Positions 8,012 to 64,000 of a DNA stretch of 64,000 nucleotides are shown here, piece after piece. The stretch is from positions 1 to 64,000 of IMG/VR virus record IMGVR_UViG_3300013936_000011, one strand, 5' to 3'. The DNA is from a virus. Lineage: Duplodnaviria; Caudoviricetes. Both the position numbers and the translations under genes were made by a program. The first letter of the stretch is position 1; every line of letters begins with the position of its first letter. The notes beneath the pieces were generated by a model. That model saw nothing but the letters and a program-made list of their open reading frames with translations. It did not search any database and was not told the origin of the DNA.

Positions 8012-8392
8012 TTAAAGAACAGTAATAGTATAGCCCTTCTTGGAAAATAGGTGGCCGATAATACCTCTATGGCATTTGTTCACGTCGCGACAAAAACAAT
8101 AGATACATACATTACGTCCTTGGTCCAGTAGATGCTTAATTTCATTTAACTCGTCAATTGCTTTAGGGTCAGTTCTAAATTGGTTCATGTATCTCTTGCA
8201 ATAAATACTAAACCAATCAGGTCTATTCATATTGTTACGATACCAATAGAATAGTTCTTTGCTAGGAGCCAAGTGTATTAATCTATAATCAATACCTTTC
8301 ATATAGCCCCTAGCTACATTGATGTTAATTACGTCACCTCCTTTCATAACACCACTATGATAACTTTTCAAATACAGAGTACCTCTACTCAT
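8012..8392 (-). CDS. DUF488-like protein
   Basis: LAPSKELF...Y..RY...CIYCFC....CHR.II pattern typical of the DUF488/YeaO family. Confidence 0.7.
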   Translation of the reverse strand: MSRGTLYLKSYHSGVMKGGDVININVARGYMKGIDYRLIHLAPSKELFYWYRNNMNRPDWFSIYCKRYMNQFRTDPKAIDELNEIKHLLDQGRNVCIYCFCRDVNKCHRGIIGHLFSKKGYTITVL

Positions 8393-13027: not shown

Positions 13028-13058
13028 GTTATTACCTCCTACTAGGAAAAATATATTC

Positions 13059-13085
13059 AAGCCTTTTTAGGGCATGCTCAGGCCC
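13059..13085 (-). ncRNA. Repeated structured element, type B, copy 2, in the leader of the RNAP gene
   Basis: Minus strand GGGC-CTGAGCAT-GCCC-TAAAAAG-GCTT. Confidence 0.4.
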
Positions 13086-24915: not shown

Positions 24916-25235
24916 TGAATATTAAACCAGCTAGAGGAAGAGTAGTACTTAGATTACCTAGAGAAGAAAGAAAAGAAGAAAAAACTTCTTCAGGTATAAT
25001 CATACCTAAAAATAGTAAAAGTGATGCCGAAGCTAGAAAAGACTTTGCTGAAGTATATGCAGTAGGGGAAGGTAAAATATTAAGCAATGGTGTCATAATG
25101 CCTATGGAATATGAACCTGGGCAAATAGTATTATTTAATAAATATGCAGGTATGCAAGTAATAGATGCTAGCGAACCTAACTATAAGTATTTAATAATAA
25201 GAGATACAGATATAGAAGGTATTATATCAGAATAG
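24915..25235 (+). CDS. groES: Co-chaperonin GroES (Cpn10)
   Basis: IKPARGRVVL, KTSSGIIIP mobile loop, VYAVGEG, VLFNKYAG, YLIIRDTDIEGII. Confidence 0.92.
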   Translation: MNIKPARGRVVLRLPREERKEEKTSSGIIIPKNSKSDAEARKDFAEVYAVGEGKILSNGVIMPMEYEPGQIVLFNKYAGMQVIDASEPNYKYLIIRDTDIEGIISE

Positions 25236-48100: not shown

Positions 48101-51100
48101 TCTCCAGTACGTAAAGGTAGATTCTGGAGTTTTGGTTCTGCTTCTGAATACAGAGGTGGAAGTATTACTTATTGGGAACCTAACTATTTAAAGAGAGCTA
48201 ACAGTGATTGGAAAGATGCTGGTATTTATGGAAGTATAGATAATAGATGGGCTCATAGCTGGATACCAACTCCACAACATCCATTAGCTCCTATTAGAAG
48301 ATTACTAGACCCATACTGGCTAGAAAAATATCATTTAAAAGAAAATGACAGACCTTATCCTTTAACTGGTAAAATGTTTACTGAAGGTACAGCCTGGGGT
48401 GCAGTACTTAATCCTACTATTGGACAAATATTAAAACCAGTTAAAATGCTACCTCAAGTTAAACGTCGTTTAGGTAGAGACGGTAGAGATTCTGTAGCTA
48501 TAATAGAAAACTTAAATAACAGAATCAAACAACGTGCTAAAGAAAATGATGACTTAATGGTAGTTAATGGTACAGATATAAGAAATGCTGAGTACGTTCC
48601 ATACGGTAATCCAGATGATGATGAACTTAATGTAACTGTTTCAAATGGACATGCAACTGTACAAGGCATGAATTATATGGACCAAGTTAAGAACATAAGA
48701 GAGTATGAGCCTCCAGATGGAGTGACTTATACAAATGATACTATAGATTATAATAGTGGTACAGTTAGCAGAAAACAACAATACATAGTAAGCAAAGCTG
48801 AAAAATTTGTAGATGAATTGGATAGAAGCAGTTACAATGCTACTAGTATAACTGAAAGTGCTACTAATATAATTAAAAAAGTAAATACAGCAATTAAACG
48901 TAAGAGTAAACATGCTAGACGAATAGATAATTCTACTTTAATGCCAGATAAACGTGAAGGTACTTTTGTATATCGTAACTTAGCAAATGAAAGGCTTAAT
49001 TACGATAATCAATATTACTCAGACCATGAAATTAAAAAGATGGTTGATCGTAGCGTTTATAAAGATTATGCCAGAGATGTTAAGCACAGTATAAAAGACC
49101 TTACTGGTATATATGGATTCCTTGGTGATAAAGCATTTGGTACAGATACATATACTTATCGTTTTGCTAATGCTGGTGAAATGACAAGTTTCAGCCGTGG
49201 ATTCTGGGATTCTAACATTGGTGGTTTAGGTGGAGAATTTATGGAAATCGCTAGACGTTTCTTCCCTAATACTGATAAGTCTAGAGTAAGTTATAATCCA
49301 TTAAGAAATAATATGCCAGATTGGATACCAGATACATATCATTATGGAGACCCTTATGTAGAAATACCTAAAGGCGAAATGAGACTTCCTGGTAAGGGTT
49401 ATGAAGCTATGTATGATTTGCATCCTGACCAATTCGGTAGATATGGTGCATTTGATAGATATAAAATCTTAGCAGATATTGCTCCTAACAGTACTGAATT
49501 TAAGAAATGGAAGAACATAGCTAAGAATACAGTAACGGATCCTAATTTAGTTAAAGAGATGGAAGACATTGGCGTACGTGCATCCAAGATGAGTGGTAAT
49601 CACGAATTCTTTGATTATAAATACATACGCAACAATCTTGAATACAGAAAAGGTAGAGTTCAAGGAATAAGCAATGGCCAAGTCGTATTAGCTGGCGGTG
49701 AAACATTAACATTAGCTGGACTTAACGTAAATGACCAAACTACTGAAGCATTAAAAGAATACTTAAAACCTGGACAAAAGATTACATATCGTACATATAA
49801 AGACAAGAAGATAGATTTAGAAAATACTCAAAGAATAACAGAAGCTGTAGTATATAGTGGCTCATCAAATATAAATGAGAGATTATTAAACGAAGGATAT
49901 GCTGAAAAGAACAAAGAAGATAATTCGGCTCTTGGTATAGCTGGTACACAATCTGGTCATCAAGAAGTTATGGGCGGTCTTCAAGAAGTTATAGCACATG
50001 CTCCTTTACCATACGTACACAGTAAATTCTTAAAAGTAGAAACTCCTCTTGAATCTTATAAGAATGAATTGTATTATGGACATCCATTTAATACATGGGA
50101 CCATCCTATTAAAGGATTCGTAACTCCTGCATTTAATAAAAATAGCGGTAAGAGTCTTGCAGGTGAAGCAGTAGCATTAGGATATGCTTATCTACACTTT
50201 AGTAAAATAGCAGGTAAAACTAGTAGTAAGTTATTAAGTAACGTTAGCACATTTACTATGGCTACATTAAATCCTGCATCATTCCTTGGTATAGCTTTAG
50301 GTTATGCTACTAGATTAAGTAATGGTAAGATAGAAGGTAATGGCGGAAGCTCTTTAACTAATGCACAAAAAGGAGCAGCTATTACTACTGCTATTAGTGC
50401 TGCTAAATATGGTTGGGATAATGCAGATAATCCTCTTAAAGCAGCTACTACATTTGCATTTGCTGGTAGTGTAATATCTCATAACCTAAAAGGCGTAAAT
50501 GAATTTGCAAGAGAAGCATTTAATAAAGAACTTAATTTCTTGCCTGGTGATTTTAAAGCTGGTGCTAAGATAGGAGCTCTCGTAGGTTTAGGAGTGTCAG
50601 CTATAAAGAACTCTCATTTTGACAAAGACAAAATATTCTCAACTAAATTTGTTCCTAAAGAAACAAAGGAAAGATGGGACATAGATGAATATTATGACAG
50701 AATGGAATATGTTAAATATATGGGATTATACAGAAAAGCAGCTAGAAAAGCTGAATTTTTTGAACATTCTAATATAAGAAGCACATTTAAAGAGTTAGAC
50801 AAGAATAAAGAAAAGATAGCTAAGCTTGATAGAAAAGCTACTAAACTTGCAACTAAGAATTCTACTAATGAAAAGATACAAAGCAAATTAACTGAAATAC
50901 AACAACAAAGACAAGCTCTTGAAGAACAAAACAACATGTTCTTTAAAGGTGGCAAATATACACAATCTGCTGTAGCTTATAAGAAGAAAGCAGAATCTAC
51001 ATTATATGGATTAAGCCCTACATCTACTAAAGATGAGTTACTAGCTGCAGTTCCAGATGAATATAAAGATCACTTCCAAGCATTTATGGACGTTACAGAT

Positions 51101-51595
51101 AAACATGAACAAAAACAAATATTAAAATATATGCCAGATTATTTAAAACGTCCATTGCAAATATCATGGGGACAAAAACCTGATAAGATGGAATCTAATT
51201 ACAGATATTTCAAAAGAAAGAAAATGCCTTCTATGTTCTGGAAAGGTTGGAAACCTAATGTGAATCTTAAATACGTTAAGATGAAAACTATTCAAAACGA
51301 AGGTATGATGTTATCTGATTTTGGTTACTATGAATCTGAAAAAGCTAAGCCTATGTATGAGGCAGCTCCTAGTATAGATGATTATAATAATAATTCAGGA
51401 CAATTATATAGAACTAATCTATTAACATCTTTACATGGTATGGGAATAGGACCAATGAATATATCTGTTAAAACTACATCAGCCCCTGGTCTATGGATAT
51501 ACGGTGATGTAAAGAGTACAGTAAGCGATGCTACAAAAGTAGCAGGCTATAAAGTAGCTACTGCAGCTCAAACATTGTCTAGTTTAATATTTTAA
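45167..51595 (+). CDS. 2142-aa virion protein in the tape-measure position, with a degenerate SNase-like segment and hydrophobic Gly/Ala helices
   Basis: Follows the chaperones; TLAGL...VVY...NINERLLNEGYA segment; hydrophobic segments near both ends. Confidence 0.6.
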   Translation: MARKRRDKKRDPSTLERLSKVSVTALAVGAGAVFLNRNKSVNKFLTDTASPLLKSTKGFKKDLIGRDKKNLMTYYRAYQKNFGKNRSKLRDEIKRRKISPLALNVKNSKAVRDALEHKQFVSKTGYKALEKNKRIAGKILARQELYKYFLQSEKYKHLTEDNARQIVKNVYDKLDDEAIASKIIDEMIPKTMEGIGIEKIDFNEIFTLINEVKKKSSPKTNSLDPYLRKNKDLFDSLKGHRTREESAFDKVDKFFKKFLDVDINSEKFITSSKAATIGDLEDNLEKFDFESPLYEKMNVTAKKPSTRSKRKEFDYDTFIQTLKDMYGEEDYRNVVLDPSIRIKDGADGPEFFSVEEMSETMKNIKNGFKDTLPGQILAKGFDDKRGMPDIAIIPADTKSAFARARTFDIDEVGQAFKEDRERNISSTPSLYMDGYLYDMRENADGKVTIDFDSGQRVKMVSGYKRRVLNELLGTTDEYKPEAFHSELAKKLGLVQDGKFNPINHLMRSLTKFEDPNWEFNQIESIEGIYLSTASPADTVKDMRSLGTAETEISKYKSRLHRNEETVAALLNKKLTGITDETMEAIIDSGNITEKQRDMLQALMDGDITFYIKAAAFDEAGNYNLKDIKNDKLRNIVNNLITDTKATLDSTETLYKKGAALPILELEFDSSTKLNLEGQLRIETVKDILLNKQGTDDAMFNWIDELNVNDIPITSKDNAMLKSMGTLAVFEDRTHLGTISNFTSAVNSLYENTDYTLNTELELNPQMKNRFENDLGSIKSDFGLFSIGYNKNLNEEYGTDYTKYGLIHMSSASQILTYNMNEGIKFNAQALKDTVRELNAGRNDPEHITELTINLQYLLSRLSYSVEGEGLGLSANDMGSPLETVKNIALKRLLPAAAIYQGYNVLNYESQKLTGTSIPGAFANSLANIDIASRRLIENTPLYGALNSLAESSVIHEYYFGDRHFNTAEEEQEYYETGYSPVRKGRFWSFGSASEYRGGSITYWEPNYLKRANSDWKDAGIYGSIDNRWAHSWIPTPQHPLAPIRRLLDPYWLEKYHLKENDRPYPLTGKMFTEGTAWGAVLNPTIGQILKPVKMLPQVKRRLGRDGRDSVAIIENLNNRIKQRAKENDDLMVVNGTDIRNAEYVPYGNPDDDELNVTVSNGHATVQGMNYMDQVKNIREYEPPDGVTYTNDTIDYNSGTVSRKQQYIVSKAEKFVDELDRSSYNATSITESATNIIKKVNTAIKRKSKHARRIDNSTLMPDKREGTFVYRNLANERLNYDNQYYSDHEIKKMVDRSVYKDYARDVKHSIKDLTGIYGFLGDKAFGTDTYTYRFANAGEMTSFSRGFWDSNIGGLGGEFMEIARRFFPNTDKSRVSYNPLRNNMPDWIPDTYHYGDPYVEIPKGEMRLPGKGYEAMYDLHPDQFGRYGAFDRYKILADIAPNSTEFKKWKNIAKNTVTDPNLVKEMEDIGVRASKMSGNHEFFDYKYIRNNLEYRKGRVQGISNGQVVLAGGETLTLAGLNVNDQTTEALKEYLKPGQKITYRTYKDKKIDLENTQRITEAVVYSGSSNINERLLNEGYAEKNKEDNSALGIAGTQSGHQEVMGGLQEVIAHAPLPYVHSKFLKVETPLESYKNELYYGHPFNTWDHPIKGFVTPAFNKNSGKSLAGEAVALGYAYLHFSKIAGKTSSKLLSNVSTFTMATLNPASFLGIALGYATRLSNGKIEGNGGSSLTNAQKGAAITTAISAAKYGWDNADNPLKAATTFAFAGSVISHNLKGVNEFAREAFNKELNFLPGDFKAGAKIGALVGLGVSAIKNSHFDKDKIFSTKFVPKETKERWDIDEYYDRMEYVKYMGLYRKAARKAEFFEHSNIRSTFKELDKNKEKIAKLDRKATKLATKNSTNEKIQSKLTEIQQQRQALEEQNNMFFKGGKYTQSAVAYKKKAESTLYGLSPTSTKDELLAAVPDEYKDHFQAFMDVTDKHEQKQILKYMPDYLKRPLQISWGQKPDKMESNYRYFKRKKMPSMFWKGWKPNVNLKYVKMKTIQNEGMMLSDFGYYESEKAKPMYEAAPSIDDYNNNSGQLYRTNLLTSLHGMGIGPMNISVKTTSAPGLWIYGDVKSTVSDATKVAGYKVATAAQTLSSLIF

Positions 51596-51620: not shown

Positions 51621-51654
51621 CGTAATATACATAAGAAGGTAGGTGTGTGCGTAT

Positions 51655-54600
51655 ATGGCGAATTTTAATAAAAATATTACGATATATGATAATAAATATA
51701 GTGTCGTTAAAGGTAGAAGAGCTGATGGTACTTTTAGAAGTGGCAGTGAGACATTAGCAGACAGACAGAAGAGAGTAAGTACTAAGTTTGCTGATGACAT
51801 AACAGCTATTCAAGACTTTGTTGATACTTTTGCCAATCAATCTAAAGTCATCTTTAGAGATGATAATACATTGGTTCTTAAAACTTCTCATAAGCCATTT
51901 GATAGAGTAGAAGAAAGCGAAGCTGCTAAGAAAGCTTTAGATATATTAAATACTAATAAATTTTTCAATACTATCACAAACAAAACAAGTCCTAGTAACG
52001 TAACTCTTAAATATCATAATTTAGCTAATATAAATACTACTGCTTCTTATGATAATATGAGTCATGTATTTGATAAATATCAAAACATAATAAAGAGTAA
52101 TGGTACTATAGTCGGTTACGACCTTGAAACACTTGGTGGTATGTCTGATGGTATATGGAATCCATTAGGTATAACTGAATTCGGTATTAATAAACAACAC
52201 ATAGTTAATGGTAAAGTAGCTAAAACAACTAGTGAGAATATCATGCTATCTGGTACTGTAAATCATACAGCTGAGTTAAATAAAATCAGAGCCGTACTTA
52301 TGAGTCCTAATGGTGCTAAGAAATTAGCAGAAGATCCTCAATATAGAGGTCTACTTGTTTCTGCAAAACGTTATAGTATGTACGGTCATAAAGATACTAA
52401 GATACATTTTGATGGAAAGAAAGGCTACGGAGTAATCGACTCATTCGTCGGTGAAAAAGGAGAAGCTTGGGGTAATTTAGAACAGATTACTGCAGGTGTT
52501 AATAAATTTATAAATATAGAAAAACAAGCTTCACAAGCCATAGATGAAGCTTCAGGATTAAGAAAAGATGTTAAAACATCTATTGATTATATATTCGATA
52601 TAATGAAGACAGGAAACGATCAACACGGTTTAGTAGTAGGTCATAATATACGTGGATTCGATAATGCTGCACTTAATCAATATGTAAAGAAACTTTATAA
52701 CAGTGATAAAGCTGCACAGAAATATATAACTAGTAAAATGGGTATCCTAGGAATAAATACTCCAGGATTCCATTTAGGACCTATTGCACAAGCCGATTCA
52801 TTAAACTTTTCTAGGGTAGTAAATAACAAGAATTATATGGGTGCATTACTTGATGTATCTGATAGAGGACGTCAAATACTTGCTCAAGCTGGACGTGGAA
52901 TTAATAAGCAAGAAAATATAGGAGCAGTATTCTTCCCTCACTTATTCGAAGGTGCTATGGCGCATAGTGCAGGTAACGATACAGCCGTAGTTAATGCGTT
53001 CTTTACTCATAGATTTACAGAAGATTATTTAAAGAAGATAGGTATCGATCAAGATGCTATCGGTACTTTTAAAGGCAAAACTCTTATAGAAGCTATGAAT
53101 GATATGATGGGCTCTTTCGATAATGCTGTCGATATTAAAGCTAATCGTCAACAAATATTTATGGCTAATAAAACTATGAATGGTAGCTTTGGCGGTAAGA
53201 AAGTATTTAACTTTACACGAGATAGCCAAGGAAATATAATAACTTCTACTGGTCATTTTATTAATCCAAATGGAGGTATAGAATATAATCCTGTACATGG
53301 TAAACAAATAGGTGTAGTTAGAAATCAACCATATACTATAGTTAATTATGGTTCCGTAAACACATCTCAATATTCAGGGCAATTAGCTAACTTAGTACCT
53401 GAGTTTGCAACGGATGAAGCGTATTATTTAAATCTAGAACAAGTAGTTGGTGATAAATATAAATCAAGAACAAATCCTACACAGACTACTATGTTGTTCT
53501 CTACTAAAGAAGAAATGGAAGGCTTTATAGATTCATACTTGACTCCATTTGCTGAATCTACTACAGGTGGAGGATATAAATATCTTGGTAACAGAAAAGT
53601 AGCTGAATCATACGCTAAACAATATATGCTTACTGATAAAGGTTTAGAATTTAATCAACAACAATGGAATAGTATGTTTGAAGCTGAACAAATCAAAGGT
53701 GCTTTAAATTCTAATTTCGAAAGAAGATACGAAAAGAAAGCTGCTGAAAACTTCTTATTTGGAGATAAGTCTGCTAAAAGAATTGGTGAGTCATTAGACT
53801 TTATAGAATACTTGAACAAAAAGAATTTATCTGCAATGACTGCTGATGATTTAGGACGTATCTATTACAATAAATACAGCGGAATGAAAGTAGGAAATGT
53901 AGAAATTACTAAGAACCTAGCCGATGAAATTAGAGAGAACATCAAAGATACATTCGGATTCCATCCTAGAGACGAAAACGGTAAGCCTCTTGAAAAGAAA
54001 ATATTATTAGATGCTACTGCAGATAATGCTATAGCTTCATTCGAACATGTTAAAGAACAAGAGAAATATTATAGAAATGCGTTAAACACAGTTTTTAAAG
54101 CTCACAATATAAATCCTAGTCAACATGGTAGTTATGGAGTAACTATAGCTAAAAGTGGTCAAGTCATGGCTGCAATTAATAATGACTTTATTACTCTTAA
54201 TGATGCATTAAGTGTTCCAGTAGCTAATTCTGTAGGAGAATTTATGGATTTATCTGAAAAAGGCGTACGTAACTTAGCATTAAATGCTGATACTCAACTT
54301 ATGCCTAAAGCTTTAGTAGATAATATGTATGAATTCAAATTAAGTAAAGATTTTTATTTCAATAAGAAAGCTAGTAATATTAATGGCCTTATGTCACCTA
54401 AAGAGTATCAAAACATAATTCAATATAGTCTTGATAGTTCTGACCCTGGCATGAACTTTATAGATAAGCTTATTAAAATACAAACAGGTGCTACACGTCA
54501 ATTAACAGAGACAGAAAGAATACAATCTGGTAGACAAGTATTTTATCAATTTGTAAATGACGAGTTATCTAAAGATAAAGTACTTAGCAAAAATCAACAT

Positions 54601-57600
54601 ATAATAGAACTAGGTAGTTATGTACAAAAGAAAGACTATAACCTACGTCATGCTTTATCATATTTAGAACAAGGTATTTCCGAAGTTCGTGAAGCAAATC
54701 CAGAAGCTGGAGTTATTAGATCAACTGCAAAACGTGGAATAAAAACTAATTATTTAATGAGTAAATACAGAAATAATCTAACTCCTGAAGCGATGGCAGA
54801 AACCATGAAAGGTATAGGTAAAACCGTAGATGTATCTTCAGCAAAGGGTACAGAGAGAAAGAAAATGGTTGAAAAACTAGTCAACAGCTTTATCATAGAT
54901 GAAGGCACTTTCTCTAGAGATTTAAAAGCATTGCATGGTTCAAACACTGACGCCATAGAAGATACTATGTTAGCATATCGTACATTAAAGAAACAATATG
55001 GAACATTTGTTAATGACTTAATAGATGCTGCAGGTAACGTAGATATGAATTTAGTATTTAATGAAAAGTCTGGCAGACTATTTGTTCAAAAAGGAGAAAA
55101 GATGGTCGACTTAGATAATATAGCTAGAATTATAAGCGACCAAGGTGCTTTATATGGTAAGAGTGGAAGTCAAAGACTTGCTATACACCATGTACTAGAA
55201 TATGATCAAAGAGCGAAGGCTTTAAAATATAGAACTAATTTAGATGACCATTTCGGCGGAATGAAGACTTTAGTTAAAAGAATTGATAAGTTAGCTGAAA
55301 AGGGCGAAGTAGACCTTGACTCATTCAGAAGAGCTGTTGGTAAATTACAAGTTGATCTTAATGAAGCTCCTGTTTATAAATATAATTATGGTTCTTTATT
55401 ATTAGCTAATAGCCCAGTTGATATAAGAGGAGTAGATCCATTATATCCTGAACTATTTAAAGAAGATGGAGAATTCCATAGCATTATAACTCGTATGAGT
55501 AATAACGATAAATTCAATGTTGATGATTTACAAAACATAATGGAAAGAAGAATACCAGAGTCTTTAGAGCCTGGTAAACTTGATCCTATGCAAAGATCAT
55601 TAATGTCTCCAGACGTAGTCCCTATACTACAAGAGTTCAATAGAGCTACTACTAATAACTCTGTTGTCGATAGAATATTAAAACATATAAATGATACTGG
55701 TAAAGAAACTAAAGAGACTAAAGGTATAAAAGTAGTCAATGAATTGTATATTCCACAAGGCTCTGGAGGATTTGATAACTATGGTCGTCCAGTATCAGTA
55801 TCTGCTTTTAATAGAAACTGGATAAAAGCGAACACTATAGAAGAAGCTAGTAAGACATATGAAAATCTATTAATAGGTGCTAGAGTTATAGATACTAAAC
55901 AAGTACATGCAAACATATATAAAAATGTTAAAGAAGTCGGTAATCTAGCAGGTGACTTTGCAATAAGACAATTAAATATGTCAAACCAAAACATATCTCA
56001 ATTAGTTAAATACAAGAGAAATTCAGTAATTGATTCTATTATAAATAAATATTCAAACGATCCAGATAGAAAATATATAGCAGATGATGTTGAACAAATA
56101 ATGTCTGAAGTGGAACATATAGTAAGAGGTTCTGTATATGAACAAGGTAAACTTATGGACCCTGAATTATTTGAAAGACTTATCGGAGATAATCCTCAAG
56201 ACGTTAGAAAGATAAGTTATAACTTAAATGCTATTCCTGCTATAGAAGCTATGCTTGAAAGGGAAGATCCTGAGAAATTAATCAAGACTAAAATCCCTCA
56301 AATGAGGGAGATGTTTGGTGAATTAAAGAGAGACGAAAATGGACATTACAGATATGTTAAGACTCCTGGTACTATTATTAAACGTGGAGAAACTATATTC
56401 CCTTATGAAGCATTCGGCGATATAGAAAAGAGATTCGGTTCTAAATTCCCAGAGAGTGTATTAAGTCTGAAGTTTAGAAACAAAGAAGGTATTGAATTAT
56501 CTGAAGCCGAAATATCAAAAATTATAAATGATACTTTTGGTAAACAGGATATTGATATAAAAGATGTAATCAATCTATTTTCAAATGGCGATGAGTTTAC
56601 TGCAGCATATGAAGTAGCGCATATTTCTCAACAAGAATTACCTAAGACTTTCTCTAACAGTGCTGAAAAATCTATGACTCGTATACCATATGCAAAAACT
56701 GGTTCGCACGATCCGAGAATAAGAAAGATATTAACTGATACTGAAAATGATCATTGGGTTAAAAATATTGTATTGAGAGATGAGACTCTTGATGCTTGGT
56801 ATCATGATTTAGAAAAAGCTTATAAAGATGGTGGCAAGACAGCAAAAGATATTCTTAAACAAAATGGTTTTGATACTATACAAGATTTAAAAGAAGCTGC
56901 TAAACGCGAAAGATTACTTTATCGTGATTTTGTATTTGGTGAAAATAGTATATTTGGCATGGTATCTGTAATAGCTAATGATAATGTTACAGGCCATGAA
57001 AATATGGGTCATCAAATGTCTAGTGCATTAGGTGAAGCTATAAGACTTACTGGTAAATACACAGCTAAACCTGGTGCTAGCAATACTGAACAATGGGAAT
57101 CAGGTATAAATAAAGTAGCTGAAATAATAGCTTCCGATCCTAAGAAATTTGGCTTTATAAGAGAAATGGATAGTAGCAAAGGTGTAAATGAAGCTAAGAC
57201 ACTTGATATTTCTCAAAACCTATCATTGCTATTTAGTACAAATACATATGATAAAAATAAAAAAGGCATTGAAGTATTAGACTCTGAAAAGATAGTTAAT
57301 TTATTCAGAGAGATAGATAAAACTATACTTAAGAATGCTCCAGAAGAAGATAGACTAGTTCATACTAATCTTGAAGGTGTAGATGAATTAGTTGGAGCTG
57401 TTAAGACAATAACTGTAGACGGCAAGAGACATGCTATTGGTTCTGTAGGTGTTACTTCTACTGCATTTGCTGAAGATTCAGAAGTGCAATCTGGTGTCAG
57501 TCAAGAATATCTTGATGCTAAAAAAGCTTTAAGACAATACACTCATATGTTGGATCAAGTAAAGGCTATTAAGCCTGAAGATCTTACAGAACAACATATT

Positions 57601-60600
57601 AACTTGCTTAAGATTCTACCAGAGAGAATAGAAGAAATACGTAACGAAATAGATGCTATGTCTGACGGTGCTGCATTTATGAAAATAGATGATCAGCTTA
57701 GAAACATACTTAGTAACTCAGCTTTAAACAGTACTACTGAAAGACGTTTAAGTAATTTAATTGCAAACAGTAGTGATCCTTATGGGTATACTAAATTGAT
57801 AGAAGAAGCTTCTGATAAGTTAATAGCTCGTAATAAAGATGGAGAATTTGAAATAAATAAAAAGTATAAAACAGATAATGTCAATAGACCATGGCTAGAA
57901 GATGTTAAACAACAAATTACTTTCAATCCATTAGAAGAAGACGAGTTAACTGAAAAGATGTTAAAGGAAGAAGAATACAGACATCTTGAGCCTATATACA
58001 ATGAAGTAGTCAGAAAACGTGGTATGAAACTAGGAACTGATAGCGCCGAATTATTCTATCAAGGTAATATCGCTTATGCTGGTGCTAAATTTAATGCTGG
58101 CGGAAATGTTGATTTACAGCCTTTATTAGACAAAGGAGTTGAAGTTGTACCTGCAGAAAAATATGTAGGTAATCTTGGCAGAGCTTCAGCTGGTCAATTT
58201 GTAAGCTCATATGCTGACAAAACTATATTATTAGACTTAGGTGAAAACTATGCTAATATGTCTGAAACAGGAAACAGATACATAGCAGTACCTGGATTAG
58301 GTAATGTAGTGAACAGTCAAGAAATTAAAAGAGATTGGCAAAAGACTGCAGGCGCTTTAGCTAATACATGGCAAGAATGGTCTAACCTAGGATTTAATGA
58401 TACTGAAGAAGGTCTTAGATTAGTTAGCAGAATGGATGACTTATACGATAAATTAAATACTGAAAGTCAACAAATAGTTAAGAAAGGTAACGTATTTGCA
58501 GAGAAAGCGAAAGTAAGAGTTAATGCTCCTGCACAACGTCTTAAAATACAAGCTACTCTTGGCGAATCAGAACTTCACGATCCATTAATAGATAAGATAA
58601 GAGCAAATACTCCTGATAATTATAAGGTTGATGAAGACTGGTTCAGAGACAATGCGACAATATTAGGTAAATCAGTATCTGAATGGGAAAAACATGGTCC
58701 TAATGGTCCTAGCTTATATTATAACTACAGATTATCATCAATGTCAGACTTCCAAAATAAAGGTTATTTTGATTATGATTTCATGAGACAAATGGGATTC
58801 ACTAAGAAAGATGCTAGTGGAAACATGGTACCTATTACTGATAAAACTGAGTTACGAAGTGAAATGATAAACTATTTAAAAACTCATGGTACTATGGATA
58901 TCTCAGACCGTTATCCTAATATATATGATACATCTGCACTTACTAACTATACATTCTTAGACACAACATTAGCTGATAATGCTACAGCTATAGCAGGACA
59001 TACTTTATCTAATCTTAATGGTGACCTTGACGGTGATTCAGATTCAACAGTTAAAATAGCAAAGAATAACGTAAACTATCTTTTATATAATAAGCATAAA
59101 GAAGATTCTATGGCACAAATGAAAGCTGATTTAAAAGCTCAAAACATAGATATAGATTCTTTAGACAAAGATATGGTTGAAGAAAACTTACGTAGAAATA
59201 CTATTCAATCAATGAAGCAAAATAATGTCAGAGGTACTGCTGAAGAACTTGGCGAAGCTTATGATTTCTTTAGAGGAAAAGAATTAGAATCTATTAGAGT
59301 CGCTGTAGATAATGCTAAAGTTGTAAGAGAAAACGTAGCAGAGACACTTGCTAAAGATAGTGGTAGAGCTTATAAATCTATGGCTTTATCAGTAGATGGT
59401 AAAAACTTGTTAGCAGAAGTAGAAGGTGGACGTTCATCTCTTGGTAGATTAAGAACGTTTAATAGAAGAGAAAACGTTGGAGCTGGAGAATTAGTTAAAA
59501 GCGATAACGAATTAAAAGATTATTTCGCAGAAGCTGTAAATGTATTAGATAAACAACCTGATTTATTTAAAGGCGAAAAGTTTAAATACGTTGAAGGCAT
59601 GAGAGAAATAGGAGATAAAGAATCTGCTAAGACTGTTGTTTCATTTGGTAATAACCAAAGAGAAGCTTTAGATGAAATGCTTTACATATTACAAAAGAGT
59701 GGTAGTCAGATGGCTGACCAAGCAGAAACTGCAGCACTTGGAAGAATTCAACAAAATAAATATGTCGAATCACTATTATTCAAAGGTTCTAAAGATGCCA
59801 TAGGTTTGGTTGATGCTCAATTATATGCTATGAAGCAAGCATCTGATAATTACTTTGCTCAAGCAGAAAAAGATACTGAACGTAGATTAAGATTATCTGG
59901 TATGAGCGAAAGTGAAATCAGAAATAGTCCTGAACTAAAATCTATTGCATTAAAAAGAGGAAATATAACTTTATTCTCTGGCGGTTCAGAACAAGATATT
60001 ATATCAGCTAAAAAGCTTAAAATGTACGCTGGTGATGATCGTTTCATGTCATTTGGTGGAACAATGCAATCAATAAGAAGTGGTAGAGCTACACAAGAAA
60101 CTCGTGAAGACTTCTTAGATTGGTTCGAACGTTACGGTAAATTCTCTACTGTAGCTAGTCAATTTGATACATGGGCAGATGATGGTACATTAAGTGAATC
60201 TATGATTAATAAAGCTTCTTCTTATATTGATAAATATGAAAAAGAAGGCGTTAAAGATGCTGCTGAAAAAGGTAAAGCTATGTATCTTGCTGAACACTAT
60301 TATGATACTATAGATACATTAAATAAGAATAATGAAAGCTTTAGAGCAGATGCTAACTTATTTGCTGTATTCGGTAGAAATGGTGGTAGCGTAGAAAGAT
60401 TAGTTAATGTAGAAGGAGCTTCTGGTGAGAGTCACACAGCTTTAATACAAAGTTTATTAAGTGGCCAAGATGTATCTTATAAAGACCATGACTTTGAAAA
60501 ACAAGGCACTAGAGTTATGGCAGATAGATTAAAGAATATAAATAACTTTAAGAACATTACTAAAGCTAGTAGCGAAACATTAGAACATATAGTTGAAGGT

Positions 60601-61002
60601 GGCAAAGATAGTTTATTAAGTAGCCCCGCTTCTATAATAGGATTTAGTGCTATCGGTTTAGCTATAGGTGTAGCTGCTGCAGGATATGCAGGTGGACCAC
60701 TTAAGAAGAGTAAAGCTGTTCAAGACGAACAACAACAAAGACAACAAACAGACGATAGAATGACTGTCCCTGAATTTTTTGACAATCAAGGAGGCTTTGT
60801 TACAGGAAATTCACAACAGGGCTATATTATCAATATCAATGCTAATACTAAGAAAGGTGAACGTCATATGAAGAGAGCTATGAAAGAAGCTGTATCAGCT
60901 TCTGTTGGTGGCGCAGTAAGTATAAATATGAATTTCAAAAGTAATAGTAGTGGTGGATGGTCAGATAAAGATATCGAAAAAATAATTAATAATTATATGT
61001 AA
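51655..61002 (+). CDS. Giant two-barrel RNA polymerase (candidate virion RNAP) with an N-terminal DEDDh exonuclease domain, about 3115 aa
   Basis: Exo motifs GYDLET, VGHNIRGFD, AHSAGND; polymerase motifs PKTFSNSAEKS (K-x7-K), RYP, NLNGDLDGD (DLDGD at 59023-59037), EQDIISAKK; ATG at 51655 preferred to the track GTG at 51643. Confidence 0.8.
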   Translation: MANFNKNITIYDNKYSVVKGRRADGTFRSGSETLADRQKRVSTKFADDITAIQDFVDTFANQSKVIFRDDNTLVLKTSHKPFDRVEESEAAKKALDILNTNKFFNTITNKTSPSNVTLKYHNLANINTTASYDNMSHVFDKYQNIIKSNGTIVGYDLETLGGMSDGIWNPLGITEFGINKQHIVNGKVAKTTSENIMLSGTVNHTAELNKIRAVLMSPNGAKKLAEDPQYRGLLVSAKRYSMYGHKDTKIHFDGKKGYGVIDSFVGEKGEAWGNLEQITAGVNKFINIEKQASQAIDEASGLRKDVKTSIDYIFDIMKTGNDQHGLVVGHNIRGFDNAALNQYVKKLYNSDKAAQKYITSKMGILGINTPGFHLGPIAQADSLNFSRVVNNKNYMGALLDVSDRGRQILAQAGRGINKQENIGAVFFPHLFEGAMAHSAGNDTAVVNAFFTHRFTEDYLKKIGIDQDAIGTFKGKTLIEAMNDMMGSFDNAVDIKANRQQIFMANKTMNGSFGGKKVFNFTRDSQGNIITSTGHFINPNGGIEYNPVHGKQIGVVRNQPYTIVNYGSVNTSQYSGQLANLVPEFATDEAYYLNLEQVVGDKYKSRTNPTQTTMLFSTKEEMEGFIDSYLTPFAESTTGGGYKYLGNRKVAESYAKQYMLTDKGLEFNQQQWNSMFEAEQIKGALNSNFERRYEKKAAENFLFGDKSAKRIGESLDFIEYLNKKNLSAMTADDLGRIYYNKYSGMKVGNVEITKNLADEIRENIKDTFGFHPRDENGKPLEKKILLDATADNAIASFEHVKEQEKYYRNALNTVFKAHNINPSQHGSYGVTIAKSGQVMAAINNDFITLNDALSVPVANSVGEFMDLSEKGVRNLALNADTQLMPKALVDNMYEFKLSKDFYFNKKASNINGLMSPKEYQNIIQYSLDSSDPGMNFIDKLIKIQTGATRQLTETERIQSGRQVFYQFVNDELSKDKVLSKNQHIIELGSYVQKKDYNLRHALSYLEQGISEVREANPEAGVIRSTAKRGIKTNYLMSKYRNNLTPEAMAETMKGIGKTVDVSSAKGTERKKMVEKLVNSFIIDEGTFSRDLKALHGSNTDAIEDTMLAYRTLKKQYGTFVNDLIDAAGNVDMNLVFNEKSGRLFVQKGEKMVDLDNIARIISDQGALYGKSGSQRLAIHHVLEYDQRAKALKYRTNLDDHFGGMKTLVKRIDKLAEKGEVDLDSFRRAVGKLQVDLNEAPVYKYNYGSLLLANSPVDIRGVDPLYPELFKEDGEFHSIITRMSNNDKFNVDDLQNIMERRIPESLEPGKLDPMQRSLMSPDVVPILQEFNRATTNNSVVDRILKHINDTGKETKETKGIKVVNELYIPQGSGGFDNYGRPVSVSAFNRNWIKANTIEEASKTYENLLIGARVIDTKQVHANIYKNVKEVGNLAGDFAIRQLNMSNQNISQLVKYKRNSVIDSIINKYSNDPDRKYIADDVEQIMSEVEHIVRGSVYEQGKLMDPELFERLIGDNPQDVRKISYNLNAIPAIEAMLEREDPEKLIKTKIPQMREMFGELKRDENGHYRYVKTPGTIIKRGETIFPYEAFGDIEKRFGSKFPESVLSLKFRNKEGIELSEAEISKIINDTFGKQDIDIKDVINLFSNGDEFTAAYEVAHISQQELPKTFSNSAEKSMTRIPYAKTGSHDPRIRKILTDTENDHWVKNIVLRDETLDAWYHDLEKAYKDGGKTAKDILKQNGFDTIQDLKEAAKRERLLYRDFVFGENSIFGMVSVIANDNVTGHENMGHQMSSALGEAIRLTGKYTAKPGASNTEQWESGINKVAEIIASDPKKFGFIREMDSSKGVNEAKTLDISQNLSLLFSTNTYDKNKKGIEVLDSEKIVNLFREIDKTILKNAPEEDRLVHTNLEGVDELVGAVKTITVDGKRHAIGSVGVTSTAFAEDSEVQSGVSQEYLDAKKALRQYTHMLDQVKAIKPEDLTEQHINLLKILPERIEEIRNEIDAMSDGAAFMKIDDQLRNILSNSALNSTTERRLSNLIANSSDPYGYTKLIEEASDKLIARNKDGEFEINKKYKTDNVNRPWLEDVKQQITFNPLEEDELTEKMLKEEEYRHLEPIYNEVVRKRGMKLGTDSAELFYQGNIAYAGAKFNAGGNVDLQPLLDKGVEVVPAEKYVGNLGRASAGQFVSSYADKTILLDLGENYANMSETGNRYIAVPGLGNVVNSQEIKRDWQKTAGALANTWQEWSNLGFNDTEEGLRLVSRMDDLYDKLNTESQQIVKKGNVFAEKAKVRVNAPAQRLKIQATLGESELHDPLIDKIRANTPDNYKVDEDWFRDNATILGKSVSEWEKHGPNGPSLYYNYRLSSMSDFQNKGYFDYDFMRQMGFTKKDASGNMVPITDKTELRSEMINYLKTHGTMDISDRYPNIYDTSALTNYTFLDTTLADNATAIAGHTLSNLNGDLDGDSDSTVKIAKNNVNYLLYNKHKEDSMAQMKADLKAQNIDIDSLDKDMVEENLRRNTIQSMKQNNVRGTAEELGEAYDFFRGKELESIRVAVDNAKVVRENVAETLAKDSGRAYKSMALSVDGKNLLAEVEGGRSSLGRLRTFNRRENVGAGELVKSDNELKDYFAEAVNVLDKQPDLFKGEKFKYVEGMREIGDKESAKTVVSFGNNQREALDEMLYILQKSGSQMADQAETAALGRIQQNKYVESLLFKGSKDAIGLVDAQLYAMKQASDNYFAQAEKDTERRLRLSGMSESEIRNSPELKSIALKRGNITLFSGGSEQDIISAKKLKMYAGDDRFMSFGGTMQSIRSGRATQETREDFLDWFERYGKFSTVASQFDTWADDGTLSESMINKASSYIDKYEKEGVKDAAEKGKAMYLAEHYYDTIDTLNKNNESFRADANLFAVFGRNGGSVERLVNVEGASGESHTALIQSLLSGQDVSYKDHDFEKQGTRVMADRLKNINNFKNITKASSETLEHIVEGGKDSLLSSPASIIGFSAIGLAIGVAAAGYAGGPLKKSKAVQDEQQQRQQTDDRMTVPEFFDNQGGFVTGNSQQGYIININANTKKGERHMKRAMKEAVSASVGGAVSINMNFKSNSSGGWSDKDIEKIINNYM

Positions 61003-61030
61003 AACTATATTATTAAGTAGGATATATTAT

Positions 61031-61062
61031 GATAGGCTTAGATTGTCCTAGGCCTATCGTTT
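61031..61062 (+). terminator. Intrinsic terminator
   Basis: GATAGGCTTAG-ATTGTC-CTAGGCCTATC then GTTT. Confidence 0.6.
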
Positions 61063-61086: not shown

Positions 61087-64000
61087 ATGGCTAATAATCT
61101 TTCAGATATAAGAGATAAATGGGCAGAGATGAAAGTCTCTAAAGTAGAAAATACTGATATGGATATAGAAGATTTTGTCCCTAATATCTACGAAATGATA
61201 AAAGAAGATTGTATTACTGAATATCTAGGGTCTATATCTGATTCTTTAAATAAAGGCAAAGATGATTATAAGAACGTAGCTTATTATTGCGAAGCTCCTT
61301 ACAGTGAAACTCTAGGCTATGATGATAAAGAAAAGGTCTGGGTATTAAGTGTAGACGGAATAGAATATAGTAAAAATATGCTTGATATGGGTTCTATAGA
61401 TGGTGATACATATGGTTTTAGTTTTTCTGATATAGATGATGGTGGCAAAAGCGCAACTATAGGTTCTAAAACATATAAAGGATTTGAAGATTATATTAAA
61501 TCTATGAACTGCGTTAGTAGTGGTGGCGACGACAGAGGCGGTATTAAAGTCAGAGCCGCAGGTGTAGACTGTGCCGAAATCCCTCACTACGAAGCTGTGG
61601 TTGTTTACAATAAAGATACAGAACTAGAAGCATTGACATGGGACCAAATAGAAGGTTTAGCTGTATCTAAAAAAGCTGAGATACAATATGCTCCTTATCT
61701 TATAAATAAGAATAAGAGTGATGATCCTGATAAATGGACTCTTTCAGAAAGAGATAAATCACACTCTGTTTTATTCTACAAAAACAAACAAGACGGAATT
61801 ACTACTTATCTAGAAGTAGTTAAAAAAGATGCTTCTTATTTATTTAGCTCATCTAGTGATTATGCTGGCGGTACTCCTATGTTAGTTGTAGGAGCTGGTA
61901 AATCTTGGGGCAAGGATACAGTATTAGATGGTTATAAAGCTCAAAGAAGAATCAAAGAGCTTTTAATAGATAAAAAGAGCAGCATACAAGATATGATACT
62001 AATACTTGATGCTCACACTACTACTGCAGTTAGAACAGCTCCTACATATACATGTTATACCTCTTTATATTATTTCCCTGAAACAGTAAAAAATATAATA
62101 CAAAGTTGGATTGATAAACAAGATGGTAGACCATTAAGCAGATTAACTTATTCTCCATTCGGTACAGATAAATATGGACGTTTACTAGGAACACTATACG
62201 TTAAGATGAAAATGAACGGAGAATCTGTATGGATTAATGTATCTAAATATGTTCAAGCAGGAACAAACCTTACTGAACCAGATCCTGATTTTAGTGGTTC
62301 TCCAGAATTAGAAGGTATTTACAACGGACTAAGTAACGATGCATTTAAAATAGGAAGTTATAATAACTCTTATAGATTTATAGATGATAGTAATGTTAGC
62401 GGAAATGAATCATTTGAAAAAATGATCAAACTTCATGAATCTCTTACTGGTTTAGAATGGAACGCAGAAAAAGAATGTACTGTATTGCTTGGTGATAGCT
62501 TCTTCTTAATTCCTCCACAAAGTATTCGTAATGTAAGTAACATAGATTATACAAAAGTACCACTATTAAGAAGTAAAGGTACCATGGTTAAGAATCAAGC
62601 TAACCGTGAACAAGTACTCGAAATGGACGTATTCTTCTATGGTGAAAATGGTATCAACGGTATTCCGTATAAAGCAGAAACGCCTAATGGTACAGAAGTT
62701 ACTTACTATATGAATGGTCTAAGAGCATTATTTGCTCAGTTCAGAATATGCCCTTTCTTACCTATTCATAATTATTATATCAATAATGTATTAGGAATAG
62801 AAGCTGTAACAATGGTAGGCATCTCACTTGATACGGTTGAAGGATTTCCTAAATTGCTTAAAGCTACTCTTACTCTTCGTGAGTTTAACTACAGAGTTTA
62901 TATGCCAGATTTACCTATACAATATGTAAATAGTGATACTGGTAAAATACAAGACTTTGAACCTATATTTGCCAAATGTTTCGAATGGGAAGTTTACAGA
63001 TATTATTATCAAAGATGTATTATGCACGGAGAAGAAATAAGTAAGTATACTTACAATACATATGAATACGGTGAATACTATTATTCTTATAAGAATGTCT
63101 TACAACGTGCAAATTTAACTTCTCAAAGTATAGAGTTTTATGTGCCAGATGATAATTGGTTAACTAAAGCTTTACAATGCAAAAAAGATAAGGATAGATA
63201 TGGTCAAATGATATCTTCAGTATCATTAAATGATGATGAATCAAGTTATGTAAATGAAATAGCTGGCGATGATCCATTAGTAGATAACGATACTTTTAAA
63301 AGCAAACTTAAAACATTGCTTAAGGATAGTAAGGTTCAACTTAAAAATAAATATAATACTTCAGATAGTGTAGTTGGTGTCAACACCAATGATATATACC
63401 GTACTGATGATTATGCTACAACATGGTCTAAATCAAGAACTCATGTTATGGATGTTAAACCTAGCGATCTTAAAACTATATTCAAGAACAGACTAAATGT
63501 ATTATTTAACTTAGGATGGGTTAATGATGTTACATTAGATGAAGGATTAAATAGTGCTAATACAGCAGTCGTATGGACTTTTAATATCAAGCTTGATACT
63601 AGTAAAGTTAGTTTAGATAATATCAGAGAATATGTCAGAGACTTATCAACTAAGACAGATGAAGGTGCTTCATCAGCTAACTTCTTTAAAGATGGATGCG
63701 GTAAATATATCGTAACAGCTCAATATGATGAAAACAGTAAGTTTGTCGGCGTATCAGCTGCTTATGATGCAGGACTTGCCGCTATAATGGCCGCAGGTTC
63801 AGGAAGTAATAAGCCATCTGAAGTTAGCACAACTTCTGAAGTATTCAATTATGCAAACTATACAGATCCTAAAGCTATGAAGTTTGTTCCTTACATAAAA
63901 GATTTAAATGGTAACAGTGTAAGCATAGATCTAGATTTATTACATGTAGTAACACAAAACACTTTTACAGAAATGTATTTAAAAGCTCAAGATGGTTTTG
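61087..64000 (+). CDS. Large virion/baseplate-region protein with a thermonuclease (SNase) domain; runs off the right edge, absent from the ORF track
   Basis: ATG 61087 with AAGGAAG SD; in-frame IDGDT (about 61396-61410), VRAAGVDCAE (about 61549-61578) and DKYGRLLGTLYV (about 62167-62202). Confidence 0.8.
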   Translation, partial: MANNLSDIRDKWAEMKVSKVENTDMDIEDFVPNIYEMIKEDCITEYLGSISDSLNKGKDDYKNVAYYCEAPYSETLGYDDKEKVWVLSVDGIEYSKNMLDMGSIDGDTYGFSFSDIDDGGKSATIGSKTYKGFEDYIKSMNCVSSGGDDRGGIKVRAAGVDCAEIPHYEAVVVYNKDTELEALTWDQIEGLAVSKKAEIQYAPYLINKNKSDDPDKWTLSERDKSHSVLFYKNKQDGITTYLEVVKKDASYLFSSSSDYAGGTPMLVVGAGKSWGKDTVLDGYKAQRRIKELLIDKKSSIQDMILILDAHTTTAVRTAPTYTCYTSLYYFPETVKNIIQSWIDKQDGRPLSRLTYSPFGTDKYGRLLGTLYVKMKMNGESVWINVSKYVQAGTNLTEPDPDFSGSPELEGIYNGLSNDAFKIGSYNNSYRFIDDSNVSGNESFEKMIKLHESLTGLEWNAEKECTVLLGDSFFLIPPQSIRNVSNIDYTKVPLLRSKGTMVKNQANREQVLEMDVFFYGENGINGIPYKAETPNGTEVTYYMNGLRALFAQFRICPFLPIHNYYINNVLGIEAVTMVGISLDTVEGFPKLLKATLTLREFNYRVYMPDLPIQYVNSDTGKIQDFEPIFAKCFEWEVYRYYYQRCIMHGEEISKYTYNTYEYGEYYYSYKNVLQRANLTSQSIEFYVPDDNWLTKALQCKKDKDRYGQMISSVSLNDDESSYVNEIAGDDPLVDNDTFKSKLKTLLKDSKVQLKNKYNTSDSVVGVNTNDIYRTDDYATTWSKSRTHVMDVKPSDLKTIFKNRLNVLFNLGWVNDVTLDEGLNSANTAVVWTFNIKLDTSKVSLDNIREYVRDLSTKTDEGASSANFFKDGCGKYIVTAQYDENSKFVGVSAAYDAGLAAIMAAGSGSNKPSEVSTTSEVFNYANYTDPKAMKFVPYIKDLNGNSVSIDLDLLHVVTQNTFTEMYLKAQDGF

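Follow-up and report, generated by a model that had tools for sequence, protein, structure and literature searches.

Injected RNA polymerases (RNAPs) let phages begin infection without host transcription, and four architectures of such enzymes are known, namely those of phage N4, of phiKZ and AR9, of the crAss-like phages (gp66) and of P23-45 (gp96). Here we describe a giant open reading frame (ORF; 51655..61002, plus strand) in the tail module of an uncultured virus of the Caudoviricetes, IMG/VR record IMGVR_UViG_3300013936_000011, the first 64,000 nucleotides of which (positions 1 to 64,000; below, the window) were analysed. We consider it fairly probable that the ORF encodes a tail-delivered virion RNAP fused to a DEDDh-like exonuclease, in a jumbo contractile-tailed phage of the lineage of Bacillus phage 0305phi8-36. 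An injected phage RNAP is an already known kind of protein, and in P23-45 it comes fused to the tape measure. What appears to be undescribed is the family of the giant protein, its placement in a contractile-tailed jumbo lineage, the traits that it has in common with cellular enzymes, the location of the polymerase core along the chain and the fused exonuclease.

In P23-45 a two-barrel RNAP lies within a giant protein, gp96, encoded at the tape-measure position (PMC10770324). Fused to the tape measure, gp96 is responsible for transcribing pre-early genes, among them the one for the non-virion RNAP of this phage, with which gp96 works together (PMC10770324). The giant protein of the window is similar to gp96 in its location, in being first recognisable only by a D-x-DGD motif, in possessing a hydrophobic segment and in being paired with a smaller non-virion two-barrel RNAP encoded elsewhere, which in our case is a candidate. 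The differences are also considerable. P23-45 is a siphovirus and the polymerase of gp96 is N-terminal (residues 1-1200 of 5002), whereas the present phage has a contractile tail and a core at residues about 1450-2830 of 3119, preceded by an exonuclease-like domain and followed by only about 290 residues; hhalign detects no relationship between the sequences of the two proteins. The solved gp96 structure is clamp-less, whereas the model of the giant protein aligns to the clamp-containing N-terminal half of β′.

The multisubunit RNAPs, both cellular ones and the virion and non-virion enzymes of phiKZ and AR9, provide the best structural matches for both halves of the core, including a possible flap-like insertion. 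Unlike them, the giant protein has both barrels on one chain, about 700 residues apart, is missed by Pfam RNAP models, and is encoded in a tail module with a tail-type C-terminus. The single-chain two-barrel layout is shared with phi14:2 gp66, a virion protein ejected into the host, with SPbeta YonO and with QDE-1, but these lack the sandwich-barrel insertion (PMC7824862) that is apparently present here, and they have no sequence similarity to the giant protein. The N4 virion RNAP follows the same logic, being a giant (~3500 amino acids, aa) injected polymerase with flanking packaging and ejection domains whose action is followed by that of a second phage polymerase; it is, however, a T7-like palm-domain enzyme of unrelated fold that is carried in a podovirus capsid.

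The giant open reading frame and its family

The ORF is a single uninterrupted frame that encodes 3115 aa from the ATG at 51655 or 3119 aa from a GTG at 51643. Because the homologues start at the ATG position (consensus MAxxNK) and the nearest relative is 3115 aa long, the ATG is the likely start, in agreement with an earlier note that was made from the letters of this DNA. Residue numbers below are counted from the GTG, and those of the ATG form are smaller by 4. The same note had picked out six motifs in the frame, and all of them are in place: YEQG (residue 1499; nucleotides (nt) 56137-56148), K-x7-K (K1668/K1676; nt 56644-56670), RYP (R2423-Y-P2425; nt 58909-58917), NLNGDLDGD (residue 2457, 34 residues after RYP; nt 59011-59037), KDAIG (residue 2717; nt 59791-59805) and EQDIISAKK (residue 2783; nt 59989-60015), all on the plus strand. 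A further invariant motif, N1779-D1780...H1785 (56977..56997, plus strand), lies in the connector that links the two predicted barrels.

A word-indexed search retrieved 23 homologues of 2907-3143 aa with 24-98% identity, all of them from metagenomes, and lengths among relatives are fairly constant (about 2890-3170 aa). An exhaustive HMMER search with residues 1451-2650 against 1.84 billion representatives returned 59 cluster representatives, every one of which belongs to the same ~3000-aa family or is a fragment of such a protein. Conservation was read from three alignments, with 22, 49 and 26 sequences of the family, whose identity to the query is 22-38% outside its close relatives. K1668, K1676, E1756, N1779 and H1785 are invariant in all three, and so are R2423, P2425, D2461, D2463, G2464 and D2465; variation is absent or slight at E1500, Q1501, E2783, K2790 and K2714, the first four of which are conserved in at least 90% of sequences. 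Since these positions are invariant or near-invariant across a diverged family, the residues of catalytic type being unchanged over 49 sequences at about 25% identity, the listed motifs must be under selection and are not chance strings. The family is very diverged and unlinked by sequence to known families, and its resemblance to RNAPs, as seen in predicted models, is structural only.

The β′-like module and its predicted catalytic barrel

An AlphaFold2 model of residues 1451-2650 built with 25 homologues has a mean predicted local distance difference test score (pLDDT) of 86.2 and a predicted template modelling score (pTM) of 0.83. RYP and DLDGD fall in this model within a strand-strand-strand-helix-loop-strand unit. 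The β′-like module, as delineated by Foldseek and VIA-align (58099..59352, plus strand), consists of a clamp-core-like N-terminal part followed by a predicted catalytic double-psi β-barrel, DPBB-A, which carries the DxDxD triad D2461-x-D2463-G-D2465 (nt 59023-59037, plus strand). When the model was compared with the PDB by Foldseek, the best matches were the largest subunits of RNAPs (β′, A190, RpoA′ and the AR9 nvRNAP chain 7s01_d), with E-values from 7e-4 and probabilities of 0.97-1.0. VIA-align placed model residues 703-1120 (protein residues 2153-2570) on residues 22-506 of E. coli β′ with 255-295 residues aligned and Z of 7.0-7.7, and it aligned 283 residues with AR9 7s01_d, covering chain positions 6-422 of 426, at Z 7.3. 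At the sequence level, hhalign weakly superimposed NGDxDGDS on E. coli NADFDGDQ (E 0.042). Because Z values of 7-8 are middling and lie near the stated background of the tool for large models, we rely on the consistency of the hits, on the region that they cover and on the invariant catalytic residues. Together these observations support a fold like that of the N-terminal half of RNAP β′ for the modelled RYP...DLDGD region.

Among entries of BFVD, the top rows span nearly the full length of the model. The first is an unnamed protein (E 2.5e-9, 1181 alignment columns), followed by a "minor tail protein" of an uncultured siphovirus (E 2.5e-6) and by the Acinetobacter phage ME3 entry A0A172Q021_2 (E 8e-6, probability 1.0); β′ subunits of jumbo phages and giant viruses come after those. 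A wide structure search of the PDB with the 1200-residue model was uninformative, being dominated by a 60-residue helical hairpin (model residues 499-561).

Two conserved stretches downstream of the barrel (59791..60015, plus strand), KDAIG (K2714...G2721...N2724) and EQDIISAKK (E2783, K2790/K2791), are candidates for the bridge-helix and trigger-loop elements by virtue of their conservation.

The predicted β-like barrel and the single-chain layout

The second predicted double-psi β-barrel, DPBB-B (56110..56712, plus strand), was delineated from the models, Foldseek and VIA-align, and it includes E1500-Q1501 (nt 56140-56145) and K1668/K1676. When residues 1451-1800 were folded separately, the pLDDT was 86.4, and in the 1451-2650 model K1668 and K1676 are each within a short β strand. 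Fifteen of the 16 top Foldseek rows for the 1451-1800 model are second-largest RNAP subunits, A135 first, with Rpb2 and bacterial β lower. VIA-align superimposed model residues 43-345 on the barrel-plus-flap regions of Rpb2 (784-979), Thermus β (678-993) and A135 (777-962). A wide PDB structure search with the same model gave nothing above Z 4, and hhalign of the β-like block against E. coli β 790-1110 gave nothing either.

DPBB-B is tentatively interrupted by a β-sandwich insertion (residues about 1520-1660; 56200..56622, plus strand) at the place where cellular β has the flap. In the model, the insertion (model residues 70-210) matches BCCP, the A135 flap (803-907), P. aeruginosa β 837-1073 and the SI3 domain of RpoC2 at Z of 2.1-2.8, so that the inserted sandwich may tentatively be likened to the sandwich-barrel-hybrid or biotinyl-carrier fold. 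Sandwich-barrel insertions are said to mark β barrels of the cellular type and to be absent from the YonO/RdRP (RNA-dependent RNA polymerase) group (PMC7824862), which is why the insertion in DPBB-B is of interest.

The presence of both double-psi barrels on one chain had been proposed in the earlier note, and a predicted structure lacking two such barrels around DLDGD was named there as the outcome that would speak against it; the AlphaFold2 models did not give that outcome. Three single-chain two-barrel enzymes aligned to the model over ranges that span both barrel regions at Z 7.2 and root-mean-square deviation (rmsd) of 3.4-3.9: QDE-1 (7y7s_B; 219 residues, rmsd 3.9, model residues 1-1108) and P74 gp62 and P23-45 gp64 (~170 residues, model residues 45-1106), all by VIA-align. 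For phi14:2 gp66, the sole match was a low-ranking BFVD entry (E 0.19, probability 0.18). Of the two-barrel proposal itself, the β′-like half stands on the fold, and the β-like half is statistically weak, so that the second barrel is weakly supported, in kind and not as proven, by the models.

The exonuclease-like region

Upstream of the core, a region at 52090..52992 (plus strand) contains the motifs of a DEDDh-type 3′-5′ exonuclease, ExoI (D160/E162), ExoII (D340) and ExoIII (H441-x4-D446), and D160, E162, D340, H441 and D446 are all invariant in the family. The three Exo motifs are colinear with those of a DEDD exonuclease chain from the PDB, in a non-significant match (E 3.5), and the Pfam model PF03104 (DNA_pol_B_exo1) matches three of nine members below threshold (E 7.7e-4, 2.2e-3 and 0.098). 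Judged by its motifs and these sub-threshold matches, the N-terminal region is a candidate DEDDh-like exonuclease.

The combination of such a region with a two-barrel core brings to mind a nucleic-acid polymerase that makes, repairs or primes DNA and uses the exonuclease as a proofreader. We know of no precedent for an exonuclease-RNAP fusion, and this, together with the invariant DEDDh motifs and the sub-threshold similarity to PolB-type exonuclease domains, counts in favor of a DNA polymerase. A precedent exists in archaea, where the two-barrel DNA polymerase PolD is accompanied by a nuclease for proofreading. Both of its barrels are shared with RNAPs (PMC10770324). The fold matches, however, rank β′-type RNAP chains first, including the clamp-like region N-terminal of the barrel, and not PolD, and the gene sits in a tail module. 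The 146.6-kb record from which the window is taken (G000) is about 56% complete by a CheckV-type estimate, relatives being 240-265 kb long, so complete relatives were used for the survey of DNA polymerases, and the missing DNA polymerase of the record of the window was dropped as evidence. Each of the near-complete relatives G001-G004 has two PolIII-alpha (PF07733) genes and lacks DNA polymerases of families A and B, which means that a replicase is already present. We therefore regard a DNA-polymerase role as quite unlikely and retain the RNAP interpretation of the core. In G002 one of the two PolIII-alpha genes is split, with one in-frame TGA.

The tail-module slot and the C-terminal module

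The gene order in the window is terminase, portal and major head protein, then the tail sheath (36333-39299) and a tube-like protein, small genes at the chaperone position, and three giant genes encoding 2142, 3119 and 2791 aa. The sheath and tube genes exclude a crAss-like phage as the source lineage. The upstream giant (45167..51595, plus strand) is homologous to gp145, a virion protein of 0305phi8-36 (BLASTP E 2e-37, 6e-31 and 1e-24), and the downstream giant (61087..64000 in the window, to 69462 of the genome, plus strand) is a baseplate hub, homologous to gp147 (BLASTP E 3e-22; phrog_20474). The trio recurs in the same order and with similar lengths in relatives whose giant protein has 23-27% identity. 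In 0305phi8-36 (EF583821) the order is chaperonins gp143/144, gp145, gp146 annotated as "hypothetical tape measure protein", and the hub gp147, with gp145 and gp146 recorded as virion proteins by mass spectrometry. Being flanked by homologues of gp145 and gp147, the giant ORF occupies the gp146 slot. The earlier note had put it between the tape-measure gene and a baseplate gene; its upstream neighbour is instead the gp145 homologue, which stands between the chaperone-like genes and the giant ORF, and the idea that this 2142-aa gene is "the" tape measure was dropped. For the giant ORF itself, PHROGs gave no tape-measure match.

The gp146 protein of 0305phi8-36 has the same slot, the same C-terminal module and giant size (2537 aa), and is found in virions by mass spectrometry (PMC2147016). 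It was assigned as the tape measure from tail length, and within the 0305phi8-36 lineage orf146 is alignable over its last ~60 residues only (Hardies et al., PMC2147016). Unlike the giant ORF, gp146 is devoid of a DxDxD motif, and the RNAP of that phage is encoded by a separate gene of the RdRP/YonO family (orf99, PMC2147016; ABS83659.1, PMC7824862). The slot thus does not by itself imply a polymerase function. A counterpart from a cultured jumbo myovirus is ME3_36 of Acinetobacter phage vB_AbaM_ME3 (KU935715), where the order is sheath, tube-like proteins, chaperonin, ME3_35, ME3_36 (hypothetical, 1603 aa) and the hub ME3_37. ME3_36 (L024:33172-37983) occupies the same slot, matches the giant protein structurally at half its size, and contains REP...GGDHDQD and a hydrophobic segment near the C-terminus; its similarity is visible by structure only, a profile comparison with the giant family having found none. 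No RNAP annotation or description of ME3_36 was found in the ME3 record or in a literature search. With gp146 free of DxDxD and ME3_36 carrying GGDHDQD, we are led to a conserved slot that houses a polymerase core in some branches of the lineage.

The C-terminus of the giant protein provides its second tie to the tail. A hydropathy scan revealed a sole strongly hydrophobic segment, rich in Gly and Ala (residues 2990-3018; 60610..60696, plus strand). The C-terminal module (60655..60999, plus strand), recognised by conservation and by hhalign to gp146, is composed of the hydrophobic segment, a Gln-rich linker and a GYIINI block. The final 119 residues are the best-conserved part of the family, with a mean of 52% identity to the query vs 18-40% elsewhere. 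By hhalign, the C-terminal ~115 residues match gp146 residues 2407-2531 (E 0.0018, 29% identity), end to end at both C-termini, and no alignment with gp146 extends beyond the last ~100 residues. Packaging and late expression, both suggested in the earlier note from gene position, are better grounded by this match to a virion protein, although both are still inferred.

Given the slot, the protein might be a tape measure or another structural protein of the tail lumen in which the polymerase-like core is an inactive relic kept for structural reasons. The assignment of the 0305phi8-36 slot as tape measure, with a product devoid of DxDxD, and the fairly constant family length, which is expected if length matters, would both suit such a role. 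What speaks against it is the invariance of the triad, of R-x-P, of both lysines and of the exonuclease residues at about 25% identity, which speaks for selection on catalysis. In addition, the 1200 modelled residues form a confidently predicted, globular mixed α/β structure unlike an extended coiled-coil or α-helical ruler. A purely structural role is in our opinion very unlikely.

It is also conceivable that the protein is an active two-barrel RNAP that is not packaged but made late to transcribe late genes in the cell, its location among tail genes being incidental. Plus-strand genes extend as one block from about 15 kb up to where the record ends, which makes the location in that block weak evidence; packaging is deduced indirectly, and a globular core is awkward for a protein of the tail lumen. 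On the other hand, the hydrophobic segment and C-terminal module are held in common with virion protein gp146 and are the best-conserved part of the family, the slot between the gp145-like and hub genes is strictly conserved, and a smaller candidate polymerase would already fill the non-virion role. This makes an unpackaged late enzyme unlikely, and we prefer a polymerase that is built into the tail.

A candidate second polymerase and the proposed transcription strategy

A divergent minus-strand block of the window contains a small candidate RNAP of ~705 aa (10910..13060, minus strand) with the motifs KYPSQ...AGSDFDGDD. It is followed by a gene of 566 aa (9125-10825, minus strand), and the two are candidates for a split non-virion two-barrel RNAP; in relative G003 the small-polymerase frame is open over 1707 aa, so a fused form is possible. 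Homologues of the small DxDxD protein occur in five of five distant relatives (E 1e-45 to 1e-9) with the triad kept as DFDGD or DTDYD, and no library entry matched this protein. Profile comparison of the giant and small families, made with the whole proteins and with the catalytic barrel, found no similarity, hence the two polymerases are not detectably paralogous. In four near-complete relatives (240-265 kb) there is neither a Pfam β′ nor a convincing sigma factor.

Relative G001 (263 kb, with terminal repeats) offers a hint about timing. Its giant gene (L009:9692-18544) has five in-frame TGA codons and ends with TAA. The three tail giants of this genome have 13, 5 and 7 in-frame TGA codons, respectively, the polymerase giant being the one with 5, whereas no such codon occurs in the pair of small polymerase genes. 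In phages it is mostly late genes that stop-codon recoding affects, and the pattern in G001 fits a giant that is expressed late and a small polymerase that is expressed early. TGA recoding in this genome is apparently confined to the late module.

The following scenario would account for these features. Residues about 1450-2830 would constitute a single-chain RNAP core with two barrels, the β′-like one giving the Mg-binding residues D2461, D2463 and D2465 and the β-like one giving K1668 and K1676, with a DEDDh-type exonuclease-like domain fused N-terminal to it. The hydrophobic segment and the C-terminal module, which resembles the end of gp146, would anchor the protein in the tail. Synthesis would take place late and be followed by assembly into the tail (in the lumen or the hub). 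Upon contraction the protein would be expelled into the cell and there, independently of the host polymerase, transcribe the first genes of the phage. These genes probably include the divergent minus-strand block, whose smaller DxDxD polymerase would then take over. Expulsion and the start of early-block transcription are proposed here by analogy with P23-45 gp96.

In a more general form, the whole 0305phi8-36/ME3-like lineage of jumbo phages, to which metagenome-only genomes of 240-265 kb belong, would have turned the protein of the tape-measure position into an injected fusion, on one chain, of a cellular-type β/β′ polymerase with a DEDDh exonuclease of the proofreading type. Threaded through the tail, it would start a host-independent cascade of two polymerases. 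We put this generalization forward tentatively and regard it as possible but doubtful.

The delivered protein could, alternatively, be a polyvalent effector with RNA-template or dual activity, similar to QDE-1, in which the exonuclease acts on host nucleic acids or defence. The tie between QDE-1 and β′ in Z (7.2) points this way, and nuclease-type domains of the neighbouring hub (a weak staphylococcal nuclease match; Endonuclea_NS_2 in a relative) suggest a payload of delivered enzymes. There is no specific evidence for an effector, however, and the steady pairing with a second polymerase in genomes that have no canonical RNAP or sigma genes fits a role in transcription better. Such an effector seems to us highly improbable, and a virion RNAP that initiates infection remains our preferred explanation.

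Sequence searches and points against a virion RNAP

Several observations weigh against a virion RNAP fused to an exonuclease. At the level of sequence, PHROGs and Pfam searches of the giant protein gave no match, and at E <= 0.01 the query and 15 relatives matched no RNAP family of Pfam (PF00623 RNA_pol_Rpb1_2, PF00562 RNA_pol_Rpb2_6); as no RNAP model scored, the protein is not a member of the Pfam RNAP families at the sequence level. Searches of the PDB by phmmer and by profile returned no RNAP, only a non-significant exonuclease row. The exhaustive HMMER search among 1.84 billion representatives gave no link from the giant family to any other family, and hhalign detected no similarity of the family to residues 1-1200 of P23-45 gp96. 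At the level of structure, in addition to the middling scores of the β′-like module, the Foldseek scores of the β-like barrel are weak (E 0.015-0.7, probability <= 0.38), and its VIA-align superpositions are low-scoring (145-168 residues, Z 2.1-2.5, rmsd 6-7). The equation of K1668/K1676 with the β lysines and of E1500/Q1501 with the ED motif is putative at the level of residues, and that of KDAIG and EQDIISAKK with the bridge helix and trigger loop comes from conservation in a region outside both models. As for delivery, the hhalign probability of the C-terminal match to gp146 is low (14.8%), gp146 itself lacks the catalytic motif, and a globular core of 1200 residues is hard to fit in a tail tube; the incompleteness of the record is to be kept in mind as well.

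Other searches also gave little. PF00623 found nothing in the whole record at E <= 10. The query, the distant family member P0077 and the small polymerase had no match by blastn or tblastn among 50,697 phage records, and ESM Atlas, interrogated by features and by shape, returned only sub-threshold unrelated rows. A literature search found no paper describing the giant family, and DLDGD or DSDGD entries are absent from the accessible part of the RNAP survey table of Chaban et al.

Implications

The architecture proposed here, if true, would be a fifth one among injected phage RNAPs. It would be the first to be situated in a contractile tail at the tape-measure slot and to combine both cellular-type barrels on one chain with a nuclease. 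It would also mean that the fusion of tape measure and polymerase, so far seen in one small set of Thermus phages around P23-45, recurs in an unrelated and widespread jumbo lineage, and an exonuclease joined to an RNAP would be a previously undescribed pairing of enzymes. Being invisible to sequence profiles, the giant family would add a very divergent branch to RNAP evolution. Giant tail genes whose products are annotated as hypothetical or as minor tail proteins would receive from this proposal a function that can be tested. One such product is ME3_36 of the cultured phage ME3, a possible experimental handle. It also raises a mechanical question, namely how an enzyme of 350 kDa passes through or sits within the tail tube.

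Other features of the region

In the 84-nt gap between the giant gene and the hub gene, 27 nt past the giant stop codon, a consensus scan found a hairpin with a 13-bp stem (61029..61060, plus strand), which, to judge from the letters, may be a terminator or attenuator. The hub protein itself has a weak match to staphylococcal nuclease (E 0.0072) and a phrog_20474 "endolysin" region, and the counterpart in a relative has Endonuclea_NS_2; the tail tip may thus deliver nucleases too. Further giant ORFs of 1708, 1650, 2836 and 2077 aa lie downstream in the record, and the string DIDGD occurs in the one at 109334-115567.

Elsewhere in the window, an ORF of 1205 aa just upstream of the terminase gene (17689-21306, plus strand) has weak SWIB/MDM2 and Myb-like DNA-binding matches and no PHROG. 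A gene of a GroES-like co-chaperonin (24915-25235, plus strand) is located between the Ig-domain protein and portal genes, and the early minus-strand block includes a DUF488-N3a gene (8012-8392, minus strand).

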